DNA of 21,850 nucleotides from Octopus sinensis (Eukaryota): assembly GCF_006345805.1 (NCBI RefSeq), contig NW_021823629.1, forward strand, positions 1 through 21,850. The letters run 5' to 3'. The notes below the pieces were generated by a model. The model saw only the letters and a list, made by a program, of their open reading frames with translations, made no database searches and had not been told where the DNA came from. Below, piece after piece: positions 9,950 to 14,467 of the stretch. Both the position numbers and the translations under genes were made by a program. Each line of letters begins with the position of its first letter. Positions within the stretch are counted from its first letter, which is position 1.

Positions 9950-10452
9950 TCGTGGTTCCTCTTCTGTATGAATGCATTTACATTTCAATAATTGATCACT
10001 TTCATAGATTGATTTAGCACAAATAGCTTAGGTTACAGTTATATCTTTCATATTAATAGGACTGTGTACAAACAATTCACCATTTTGAAAGAATGATTCA
10101 GGTTTAACATCACAGTGATATGTTTTCCTTCCTCTGTCAATGCTCTTTTGATTCAATAATGGATGATTTCATGTCAAAGATTTACTATGGATATCACATT
10201 CATATAGTTTCTATCAAGTGTAGAGTTCTTTCTAAGGTCCAAGCTTCACCTTCTGACGGAATGTCATACAACAAATGTCACTGTGCTATGGATCCTTTGC
10301 ATAACGAATGCACTTGAGTTTAATTAAGTGAAGATTTTGTGAGAATGATTTACCGCAGATATCAGTGATATGGTTCCTCACCTGTATGAATACACTTGTG
10401 AGAAGCTAAGTCTGGGAATGATTTACCACAAATATCGCAGTGATACGGTTCC
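9950..10452 (-). pseudogene. Fossil zinc-finger repeats downstream of the gene 2 stop
   Basis: Frameshifted or deleted finger units ([28 protein letters not shown]) grade into older eroded units. Confidence 0.75.
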
Positions 10453-11523
10453 TTACCTGTATGAACACTGGTGAGAAGCTAAGTTACTACCATCAGAAAA
10501 TGATTTACCACAGATATCACAGCGATACGGTTTCTCCCCTGTATGAATTAGTTTGTGTGTAGTGAAGCTGCTGCCCTCATAGAATGAATTACCACAGATA
10601 TCACAGTGGTAGTTTTTATCTCCTGTATGGATATGCTTGTGAATATCTAAGCTATGAGTATGTGAGAATGATTTACCACAAATATCGTAGTGATATGGTT
10701 TCTCCCCTGTATGAATGAGTTTGTGTCTAGTTAAGTTACTGCCAACAGAGAATGATCTTCCACAGATATAACAGTGATATGGTTTCCCGCCTGTATGAAT
10801 ACGTATGTGCTTCGTTAAGCTACTTCCATCAGAGAAAGATTTACCACAGATATCACAGCGATATGTTTTCTCTCCAGTATGAATATGTTTGTGGTTTGTT
10901 AAGTGACTATTTCGAGAGAATGATTTACCACAGATATCACAGTGATATGGTTTGTCCCCTGTATGAATACATATGTGCTTCGTTAAGCTACTTCCATCAG
11001 AGAATGATTTACCACAGATATCACAGGGATATGGTTTCTCCCCTCCATGAACCCGTCTGTGAGTAGTTAAGTTAAATTCTTGATAGAATGATTTACCACA
11101 GATATTACAGTGATATGGTTTCTTCCCTGTATGAAACCGTTTGTGTTGGGTTAAGTTAGTGCCATCAGAGAATGATTTACCACAGATATTACAGTGATAT
11201 GGTTTCTCTCCAGTATGAACACGTTTGTGTTTCGTTAAGCTACTGCCAAAAGAGAATGATTTACCACAGATATCACAGTGGTATGGTTTCTCACCTGTAT
11301 GAGTACTTTTGTGTTGAATTAAGCCACTCCTGTCAGACAATGATTTACCACAGATATCACAGTGATATGGTTTCTCTCCAGTATGAATACGTTTGTGTTT
11401 CGTTAAGCTACCGCTAACAGAGAATGATTTACCACAGATATCACAGCGATATGGGTCTTGACTTGTATGAATTTCTTGGTGTTCACTGGATTTACGTTTT
11501 TCTAAAAATGACATTTTGTACAT
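10453..11523 (-). CDS. C2H2 zinc-finger protein, gene 2 (10 intact fingers, one C->Y broken, last one frameshifted)
   Basis: 356 aa with 12 finger units. Unit 10 reads YHYDIC. Unit 12 ends HQCSYR* after a small deletion. Confidence 0.92.
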
Positions 11524-14467
11524 GCCACAGTCATATGATGATGTTCCGTATTCCTCCGATATTTCTTCAAGAAAAATAAAATCGAACCTTCAAGTTGTAC
11601 AGATCAACAACTTTTTAATAATATTTCTCCTCTCACCAAAATATATGGATATTTTGCTTCTTTTTGCTTTAATAGTTAATTCCAAACAAATATCACTTCT
11701 CTTATATTTCTTCTGAACGTGATCATTGCCAATATTTAAAAATGTTGCAAATACTCTTTGGAAATCTATCAAAGTATATTTAAAAGAGAAAATTATCTCT
11801 TGCACATTTCAGACACAGAAGTGAAGAAATGCTTTCTCTCTCAGAGGAAATATTTTACTGTAATTCAGCAATGTTTTATAGAAGCAGGATTATACGTTTG
11901 TAGAATATCTTTGCAGAGTCTTTCAAACATGATACATATTCATGATTCTTTAAAAGCAAAAAATACTTTTTATCCAATTTCATGTGATTCTTCTGAAAGA
12001 ATAGAAAAAATAATATAAGACATCAAGTATGTTTAAAAGGCAGATATTCAAAAGTGCAAATTTACGACATTTCTGTTTCCATAAATTGTAGAAGTAATTC
12101 TTTATCTGAACTATTATATTAATCCCATCTCTCTATTTTCGAGAAGTTTATATCAGGGTGTAGACACATGTAGTATAATAACATCTGGACATTAAGTCTG
12201 TCATAGACACACACCAACATACATGTCAATAACACTAGATATCTGATGTTTTAATCTCAATGATGTGTTGTAAAAGAGATATCACACCTCCTCTGCCTCT
12301 TTCCGTACATTTATAAATATATAAATACACACATACAGGCAGCTTAATGTCAATATTCTGTGTTACATGAAACATGAATAAAAGTCAGCAAATAATCAGT
12401 ATGGATGACTAACAGCATCAAAATCTTTTGTGGGGAATTTTTCATGTAGGAGAAATTATTGGTTGAGGTGGAGAAGGAAATTGGTGACAATCCTTCTCAA
12501 TGGGGGCAAATGATGCGTAATCACGGAGGTGTGAGTTCGAGTCTCATAGCCTGCCGCCAACACTTTTCTGCAAAATAGGGGTAGCTTATCCTGTTCAGGC
12601 TATATTATTAGCAATATCCTGCCTTTGAGAATTTAAAATCATTTCTTAAACTTTCTAAGACATCTCAAAAGCTTCTAAAGCAAACTTCGTTTGTTTGTTT
12701 ACGTTCATCGTAATTTGAATATAAATATATATGTATTACGAAGAGAGAAAAGGATAACTTAGGTAATTAATTGAAAATAGCATAAAAACACAGAGTGCAA
12801 TTCATATATAATGCCTTAAATCCCAACAACGGACCATTGAATGTGTTTATGTGAAAAAAGATATCAAAAAACATTAGCACGTAAGAGTGAGAAAGAAACT
12901 CGGAAGGTATCAGGTGGTCGTGGGGTGCGCGATAAATAACAGCTAAATTGCTCTTCAATCGGTTTTTTCCCTTCTTTGTTGGTTTCATAACCGATTGAAT
13001 CCTTGCATGTACAGCAGAAATACGCAGAATGTATTTTTATACATTCCGCATGTCTTAGAAATTACATCGTAATTTTCCCGCGGAATTTACATGTGAGGAA
13101 GAAAGAGAAAAGTTATCTACACAAGGTATCCATCGGACGTTAACAAATAATATAGGAAATAAGGAAAGATGCAATGAAATATCTGAATGTAAAGGAGACA
13201 CAACGAAAGTATTGAAAGAACAGCCTCACCGAAGTTGAAAAAGTGGGTTTCCATCGCAAAAAAATTAGGGAAAGGTAGGTGCGGTCCATGCCCTTTACCT
13301 CCGCTATTTCGTCTTTGTTTAGTGAGATTCTTTCTTGTAACTTACTCAACACATCGAAACAAACAGACGTACGTAATATGATACATATACAATAGAAATA
13401 TACTTACATAGTAATATATATTCAGAGACAGTCAACGATGAAAATATGAGAATATGTTGAATGAGTGAAAAGTTAGAGTGGACAGTGACAGCTTCAAGAG
13501 AATTTTTACGACGAATATTAATATTTAACAGGTCAACATAATAAAAAAAAATGCTGCATCTGTTTCTTTAGACACTTAATTACCAATCACGTGTCTATTT
13601 AATTAGATTTTCTCGTCAATATCGGTTGTAAAGTGGAACTGATCAAGCAATACACATGCATACGGAGCAACAAAATTAGGAAGAATTAACTCTGAACAAG
13701 GGGAACTAAGTCTTATCTTTCTACTCTAGCGGTGTCATATGAAATTGTCACCCATAATTATGACCCTAGTATCGATCTACTGCATTTCAATCTATTTTAG
13801 GGTTAGGGTTGGGGGGAAGGATAATCTTTTTTCTTCACAAATGTAAATAAACCCAATCTGTTTCTTAAACGAGGGACATATTCATACGGCACAGGAATTT
13901 TTTCCTTACCTCAATGGACGTCATTGATTGGTTGAAATTGCAGAAAAAACAACAAATATCTTACAAAGTATAGAATTTTCTCAATAAAGCCAAGAGAGAA
14001 AGATGTTTTATAAACACATTCTACCAGTATACGAAGTTGAAAATTTTTTAGTTACCTAGAAATTATGTTAAAAAAACTGCCGTTCAAACCGAAAAGATCC
14101 TATATGTGTTAAAAAATTTCATCACGCAATCGAACCAATGAGAGAGCCTCTGCCTGGTCGCTCGACATGCTAAAAATAGCAGCCAAAGTATACCCCTATC
14201 TAAATCACATGCCCATTGTACGTAATGTCCTAGATTATCCCTCAAAAGACAGTTTGCTGAAGGCTGGAATGTCTTTGATGATACGTTTGCTGTATCAGGT
14301 TTGATTTGAGGCTAAATAACATTATGGTAAATTTCTATATCAACTCCCGCATGATTTTCACTAAGAAAAAAATCAAAATGTTAGATTTTTTGTGTGGAAT
14401 CAACTACCCTGACCTCATAATATGCTACAAAACCCTTTTATGGGTCCAAAACATGGGGTGGGGTGAG
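11450..14467. repeat. Segmental duplication, copy B
   Basis: Nearly identical to 6360-9525. Lacks ~7901-8113 of copy A (junction at 13030/13031). Confidence 0.95.
13725..14100 (+). mobile_element. MITE-like DNA element, duplicate of 8782-9158 (right TIR 14071-14100)
   Basis: Near-identical sequence with the same truncated left end. Confidence 0.8.

Follow-up and report, generated by a model that had tools for sequence, protein, structure and literature searches.

The zinc-finger minisatellite of PRDM9 consists of 84-bp finger units that recombine, giving new recognition codes by exchange between alleles whose units are near-identical. Hybrid duplicates formed by unequal crossover between tandem paralogues are well known, and so are the gain, loss, and sharing of fingers among zinc-finger genes. 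The anti-Lepore hybrid takes its front from the downstream gene and its back from the upstream gene and is placed between the two (PMC4041002). Chimeric duplicates also form over two adjacent genes, as in Drosophila Sdic, a mechanism that one review rates as likely to be common (PMC3449122), and in cephalopods clustered C2H2 genes number from hundreds to thousands (PMC9068888). Here we describe three C2H2 zinc-finger genes (gene 1, gene 2, and gene 3) arranged in tandem, all on the minus strand, in a 21,850-nucleotide stretch of Octopus sinensis DNA (contig NW_021823629.1, positions 1 to 21,850; the window). An earlier note on this DNA proposed that gene 2 is a chimera, with a front from gene 1 and a back from gene 3. 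In this sequence the chimera is real, and it probably arose by unequal crossover between the finger arrays of two neighbors.

Gene 2 resembles an anti-Lepore hybrid in several respects: it lies between both tandem parents as one extra copy, its 5′ part and upstream DNA appear to come from the downstream gene and its 3′ part from the upstream gene (except for a 560-bp patch), and the intergenic spacer is present twice and stays colinear over the junction. In both cases a comparison of the two flanks tells the hybrid from conversion, and tracts of conversion overlie it, as they do in the dolphin gene. The two differ in that the crossover here would fall in a coding tandem repeat, where it can slip by whole fingers and alter the length and order of the array; in that the parents are ~20% diverged outside the repeat; and in that the present case is known from sequence alone. 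With Sdic-type genes the locus shares the principle that one duplication partly covering two neighbors yields a new gene at once, but the general case in the review joins two separate genes, whereas here paralogues are joined in frame at a shared repeat. In young mouse KRAB zinc-finger clusters, tandem poly-C2H2 genes likewise duplicate, gain or lose fingers, and share runs of fingers (PMC5363842, PMC11952569); expansion there is attributed, in the portions available, to multigene segmental duplication on endogenous retroviruses and not to a breakpoint in the array. The coleoid cephalopod expansion also involves clustered, expanded C2H2 genes (PMC9068888, PMC10547256), but the published account, as far as available, consists of counts, positions, and predicted transposon binding and gives no base-level mechanism for the birth of a single gene, nor for changes in recognition codes. 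Within the literature covered, which was partial, we found no description of an array-breakpoint hybrid zinc-finger gene in cephalopods, and PMC2443715, as far as covered, does not treat the mechanism. Gene 2 is thus a clear new example of a textbook mechanism, at one locus and of modest interest; its value is that of a readable case, with a hybrid gene, a locatable breakpoint inside the array, and traffic of fingers among neighbors. It is also a caution, since in clusters of this kind orthology and gene trees drawn from whole finger arrays will mislead.

Gene 1 (5684-6430, 248 amino acids), which would represent the downstream parent lineage, has a broken finger 0, seven intact C2H2 fingers, and a degenerate last finger. 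The gene 2 frame (10453-11523, 356 amino acids) holds a broken finger 0, fingers 1 to 11, and a frameshifted finger 12; a Cys-to-Tyr change in finger 10 leaves 10 fingers intact. Gene 3 (15106-16302, 398 amino acids), the candidate upstream parent lineage, has fingers 0 to 13. All three consist of 28-residue C2H2 repeats with TGEKP-like linkers, as expected of the Kruppel type, and the Pfam families zf-C2H2 and zf-H2C2_2 (PF00096 and PF13465) score far above cut-off in all three proteins. Exons, introns, and promoters were assigned by position and splice-like motifs. Fingers are cited below by gene and finger number.

The front of gene 2 goes with gene 1. The 13-residue N-terminal motif common to genes 1 and 2 was borne out, as was the ATA that both, having lost the start codon, carry at the position of the gene 3 ATG; in these two genes the first ATG in frame falls within finger 0 (6359-6442 in gene 1, 11452-11535 in gene 2, and 16192-16275 in gene 3), which lacks its second cysteine in genes 1 and 2 and is intact in gene 3. 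Finger 0 of gene 2 differs from that of gene 1 at 3 of 84 bases and from that of gene 3 at 20 of 84. Over the N-terminal block (139 columns), the divergence of gene 2 is 4.3% relative to gene 1 and 20.9% relative to gene 3, with 24 informative sites against 1 in favor of gene 1. The same preference appears in the proximal intron (59 sites against 8 in 357 columns) and in the far intron plus exon 1 (102 against 8 in 665 columns), the latter compared three ways over BLAST-alignable blocks only, so that its 16% divergence is a lower bound. Overall, the N terminus, intron, and upstream DNA of gene 2 are 2 to 5% from gene 1 and 16 to 21% from gene 3.

The putative introns lie at 6861-8475 in gene 1 (a GTAAGT donor, with a pyrimidine tract and CAG acceptor), 11993-13407 in gene 2 (gene-1-like past 12143), and 16735-18567 in gene 3 (outside the patch, its alignable blocks are 16 to 19% from genes 1 and 2). 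Putative exon 1 and the upstream spacer occupy 8476-9525 in gene 1, the left copy of the duplicated spacer, and 13408-14467 in gene 2, where identity to the gene 1 counterpart is 97 to 98%. The near identity of intron and upstream DNA between genes 1 and 2 thus stands, at 96.3 to 98.3%, but not for the whole 5′ half: 214 bp of the gene 1 intron (7900-8113), partly kept in gene 3, are missing from gene 2 near 13030, and the 5′ half is not uniformly gene-1-like. A 48-bp T-arm-like relic (12515-12562 in gene 2) is, as claimed, identical between the two genes. ARAGORN found no tRNA genes, and the sole Rfam match (E up to 0.1) was a sub-threshold mir-5444 hit at 2924-3020, so the relic is a motif resemblance and no more. 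Likewise, the repeat upstream of both genes is present, but its designation as a miniature inverted-repeat transposable element (MITE) fails for want of terminal inverted repeats: of the 16 and 12 short arm pairs, none connects the two ends of the copy at 8778-9158 or of that at 13721-14100. The repeat is of the dispersed kind, with rearranged pieces at 2152-2325, 8778-9158, and 13721-14100. Neither the relic nor this repeat has a match upstream of gene 3.

The back of gene 2 goes with gene 3. Along the tail (9991-10400, 395 columns), gene 2 diverges by 3.8% from gene 3, against 18.0% from gene 1, and informative sites favor gene 3 by 63 to 7 (P = 2e-12). The protein features cited for this side in the earlier note could be placed on particular fingers: the GGEKP linker is common to 2.5 and 3.6, a 12-residue motif to 2.6 and 3.8 (2/84 base differences), NSHLTNH to 2.7 and 3.9 (6/84), and a 17-residue motif to 2.10 and 3.14 (6/84). 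The similarity of the 3′ untranslated regions of genes 2 and 3 was also upheld (tail identity 95.5%), together with the shared 2-bp deletion that creates TGA at 10364-10362 in gene 2 and at 14841-14839 in gene 3, where gene 1 is intact. This TGA lies downstream of both present stops and ends neither present frame. The gene 2 stop (10453-10455) was created in finger 12 by a 2-bp deletion private to gene 2, and the gene 3 stop is a TAG (15106-15108) within a linker; the shared TGA is likely to have been the stop of a common ancestor, genes 2 and 3 having been shortened separately afterwards. The proximal tail of gene 2 (9991-10452) carries two dead fingers in addition to the shared deletion, and the gene 3 tail (14468-15105) carries four finger units that are now noncoding and has no AATAAA. 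In the proximal tails of all three genes (~10000-10290, 14480-14770, and 5490-5690), an 84-bp period and finger-like remnants are retained, so this 3′ untranslated DNA appears to be decayed array.

As trees of three sequences cannot be rooted segment by segment, counts of informative sites were used in place of RDP or GARD. The counts give gene 1 as the partner in front and gene 3 at the back, not the same partner on both sides, and MaxChi also detected recombination across the units (permutation P = 0.0005, the floor for 2,000 shuffles). Few sites in any of the three-way segments are peculiar to gene 2 (5/395, 3/139, 5/509, 8/357, and 6/665, or 1 to 2%), indicating that gene 2 keeps no old sequence of its own.

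The DNA around the genes shows the same two-sided pattern as a physical duplication. Positions 8754-9525 match 13697-14467 at 98.3%, and 9991-10411 then match 14468-14888 at 95.5%. The offsets are 4,943 and 4,477 + 465 = 4,942, a period of 4,942 to 4,943 bp that departs from colinearity by no more than 1 bp over the gene 2/gene 3 junction, and one block, running from mid-gene to mid-gene, is therefore present twice. What separates the two matches is 465 bp of distal tail and spacer (9526-9990), which stands at the gene 1/gene 2 junction and is absent from the gene 2/gene 3 junction, leaving a blunt join at 14467/14468 with the duplicated block colinear on both sides. No match to the spacer was found to the left of gene 1, and homology between genes 1 and 2 stops near 4935. 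Over the whole block there are 96 substitutions in 3,362 positions (2.9%), and the tail (17/410, 4.1%) does not differ significantly from the pooled 5′ segments (79/2,952, 2.7%; P = 0.13). The distal tail of gene 2 is 10 to 15% diverged from that of gene 1. A recent whole-gene duplication of gene 1 was therefore rejected (tail divergence of 10 to 18%), as was a whole duplication of gene 3 (front divergence of 16 to 21%). The 465-bp segment includes the gene 2 AATAAA (9593-9598). Gene 1 also keeps an AATAAA (4968-4973), likely to be its polyadenylation signal, and none occurs on that strand between 9599 and 15000, the sole such remnants before gene 2 being ATTAAA at 14796 and 13598. The loss thus took the gene 3 counterpart of the signal, and gene 3 transcripts may read through into the DNA upstream of gene 2.

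Within the array the donor gene changes once. Fingers 2.0 to 2.3 and the adjacent leader (11200-11583) are gene-1-like, with 3, 4, 6, and 4 differences per 84, and of fingers 2.5 to 2.14 (10289-11115), 9 of 10 are closest to a gene 3 finger, 2.9 being tied. The switch from gene 1 to gene 3 falls in finger 2.4 (11116-11199), with its best point near 11155 and a cautious range of ~11075-11284. Nearest-finger labels read 1111=3333=33333, an order with a chance probability of 0.0014. Painting gene 2 from both neighbors gave a single donor change at all four switch costs tried, with a mismatch of 6.9% against 9.2 to 9.8% for gene 3 alone and 12 to 15% for gene 1 alone, and a hidden Markov model (HMM), run at three settings, put the change within finger 4. 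When 42 single fingers were placed in a tree, only 10 of 39 inner branches were resolved; the tree supports 1.0 with 2.0, 1.1 with 2.2, 2.5 with 3.6, 2.10 with 3.14, and 2.12/2.13 with 3.16, and also places 1.3 and 1.7 with 3.12. As in PRDM9, 84-bp finger units recombine; here the exchange would be between paralogues, with units a median of 16/84 bases apart.

In a patch of leader and intron end (11584-12143 in gene 2, with counterparts at 6496-7010 in gene 1 and ~16325-16885 in gene 3), the three genes are 3 to 5% apart against ~19% in the flanks. Across 11592-12140 (509 columns), all pairs are 2.9 to 4.7% apart, with 14 sites for gene 3 and 9 for gene 1; genes 1 and 3 are 19% apart on both sides of the patch (P = 3e-13; a segment scan gave P = 0.003, the lowest value that 300 shuffles allow). 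No difference separates genes 2 and 3 over 11652-11751, and both retain 39 bp missing from gene 1. Purifying selection was excluded as the cause, since the divergence between genes 1 and 2 is not lowered in the patch (20 differences against 6 expected under constraint, P = 5e-6), and a conversion tract is therefore the likelier explanation. Among the fingers, 1.3 (6107-6190) and 3.12 (15184-15267) have just 3 differences in 84 bases, in genes that are themselves ~20% apart; this finger type is missing in gene 2 and doubled in gene 1 (as 1.7). Fingers 1.2, 2.1, 2.3, and 3.7 form a close group with 4 to 7 differences. Exchange therefore also linked genes 1 and 3.

Taken together, the colinear duplication, the diverged distal tail, and the single change of donor are best explained by an unequal crossover between the 84-bp arrays of two neighbors that duplicated ~4.9 kb, with reshuffling since, a reading to which we give a probability of roughly 70%. 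Two ancestors ~20% diverged would have lain head to tail, B (the gene 3 lineage) upstream and A (the gene 1 lineage) downstream. The array of A may have paired in register with that of B near the finger type common to 1.2 and 3.7, and a crossover there would yield the order B, A/B hybrid, A. Conversion around then could have homogenized 560 bp of leader and intron between A and B. Finger gains, losses, and swaps would have followed, gene 2 now holding two 3.8-type and two 3.16-type fingers, as would three deletions (39, 214, and 465 bp) and the separate shortening of genes 2 and 3 by new stops. The direction of these events rests on parsimony, no outgroup having been found.

Several observations weigh against this history, above all in the strict form proposed earlier, in which one step made the gene and the locus is a snapshot of that step. 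A strict one-crossover array mismatches gene 2 at 218 of 1,247 positions (17.5%), compared with 87 (6.9%) for a mosaic of at least seven pieces (a minimum, as painting merges repeated use of finger 3.16), and a one-step join of the arrays is thereby excluded. With the tract shared by three genes, the fingers shared by genes 1 and 3, the three larger deletions, and divergence along the block that ranges from 1.1 to 4.5% (uneven at P = 0.003), "one step" and "snapshot" find no support, and crossing-over between the neighboring arrays was kept. Fingers 2.4, 2.9, and 2.11 have no partner nearer than 11 to 12 of 84, and the HMM assigns part of 2.9 to gene 1 (0.84 to 0.85). The breakpoint is soft, in that 2.1 and 2.3 are almost equally near 3.7 (5 and 7 differences) and 1.2 (4 and 4), and its site is blurred by later reshuffling. 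Painting gene 1 from genes 2 and 3 likewise gives a single donor change at three of four switch costs (8.2% mismatch), so array painting alone cannot single out gene 2. Synonymous divergence of seven sister finger pairs is 0.10, above that of the flanks, and some pairs may not be true sisters. Finally, the central 1.9 kb of the block differs by just 1.8% (34/1,910), near the 1.22% heterozygosity reported for O. vulgaris (P = 0.02).

This last figure bears on the alternative that fares best among those considered, although we regard it as improbable: an assembly error in which the finger repeats led two haplotypes of one two-gene locus to be assembled one after the other, gene 2 consisting of the gene 3 tail of one haplotype and the gene 1 front of the other. 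An identical layout would be expected. The join does fall in a tandem repeat, diverged haplotypes escape purging, and PMC9068888 cautions about spurious redundancy at ~1.2% heterozygosity; in addition, none of the three proteins has an exact match in the protein collection (two start variants each for genes 1 and 2). However, at 2.9% the block as a whole is well above 1.22% (P = 1e-13), although the O. vulgaris figure may not be that of the host, both block ends reach 4.1 to 4.5%, and deletions of 39, 214, and 465 bp separate the copies. The arrays would moreover have to be allelic, but the number and order of their fingers differ, they mismatch by ~7%, and they end at separate stops. A search for an orthologue of the gene 2 protein among 5.8 billion proteins scored 7,993 matches from 8,000 candidates, the best 120 of which were generic zinc-finger proteins at up to 61% identity, none named as cephalopod. 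Residues 1 to 42 of gene 3 drew no candidate in the protein search, and the 42-residue N-terminal frame of gene 2 gave 63 weak matches (up to 39%) against 1.84 billion representatives.

Less probable still, gene 2 could be a third paralogue of greater age, or a complete copy of a neighbor, in which separate long conversions replaced the front with gene 1 sequence and the tail with gene 3 sequence (or gene 2 was itself the donor). Conversion appears to be active here, judging from the 560-bp patch and the likeness of 1.3 to 3.12, divergence along the block is uneven, and conversion makes similar globin chimeras (PMC4041002). A conversion chimera is recognized by a recipient that retains its own older flanks, and gene 2 retains none: no three-way segment contains old gene-2-specific sequence, and its spacer is 98% identical to that of gene 1 and colinear over the junction within 1 bp. 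The tracts would need to span ~3 kb, including an intergenic repeat and the whole tail, and to meet within the array, in two or more events where a crossover needs one. That gene 2 is instead the intact ancestor, and gene 1 or gene 3 a chimera whose other half came from a paralogue lost or outside the window, is very improbable: although three sequences cannot be rooted, the gene 1 array can be painted from the other two genes, and relatives may exist beyond the window, this requires an unseen donor and an extra event to leave gene 2 within 2 to 5% of both neighbors. From a single crossover, moreover, the hybrid is expected to lie in the middle, as gene 2 does.

If expressed, gene 2 would encode a 10-finger DNA-binding protein, with no effector domain in this exon, under a copy of the gene 1 upstream DNA. 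No KRAB or SET domain appears among the best 25 of the 47, 37, and 43 Pfam rows for the three proteins, and with at most 24 residues before the first finger the exon holds no KRAB domain and has no room for SET. The contact code of gene 2 (VGSK DSGQ FSSK DTNQ QFNT DSSK RSHN DSSK VSNR, a broken finger, and ESST) is unlike those of both neighbors. Across all finger pairs, which are nonindependent, the ratio of nonsynonymous to synonymous divergence (dN/dS) is 0.35 for framework codons and 1.12 for contact residues, low and high values that are the usual pattern of DNA-binding arrays. The putative leader of gene 2 (11524-11992, from the presumed acceptor) contains seven upstream ATGs whose short frames are interrupted by stops, making translation uncertain; this leader and its counterparts may represent coding sequence that has decayed, or splicing may use a nearer acceptor. 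Binding to transposon sequences has been predicted for octopus zinc-finger proteins (PMC10547256), which for gene 2 is a lead only.

We offer more tentatively, and think it doubtful on present evidence, the broader idea that the C2H2 expansion of cephalopods is driven by recombination in the finger arrays themselves, paralogues 20% diverged elsewhere crossing over and converting through their 84-bp repeats. If so, genes would be born as hybrids with the promoter of A and the code of A plus B, finger types would circulate as a pool shared by neighbors, and the cluster would act like a multigene PRDM9 minisatellite in which new DNA-binding codes arise in jumps; loss of the gene 3 poly(A) signal may then couple gene 3 to the hybrid by read-through.

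Outside the three genes, the window contains several repeats. A 425-codon open frame on the minus strand (19413-20690) has a CCHC zinc-knuckle-like motif, and we take it to resemble retroelement ORF1 or gag; Pfam gave no match for 19416-20612. The 2924-3020 segment noted above is hairpin-like, matches mir-5444 on both strands (40 bits against a cut-off of 90), and is related to a repeat at ~9213-9245. Positions 2462-2529 match 21015-21080 at 85%, and 1820-2140, 2462-2529, 21015-21140, and 21585-21760 are presumably further retroelement and short interspersed element (SINE)-like fragments. At the left end, 1-424 is a 3′ fragment of a long interspersed element (LINE)-like reverse-transcriptase frame, the best named matches of which (2-421), among 120 listed, are from O. 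vulgaris (82% identity, with 47% of the query covered) and O. bimaculoides (80%, 35%). It is followed at 424-1438 by three near-identical tandem copies (96%) of a ~335-bp unit, with shorter sub-repeats continuing to ~1610.

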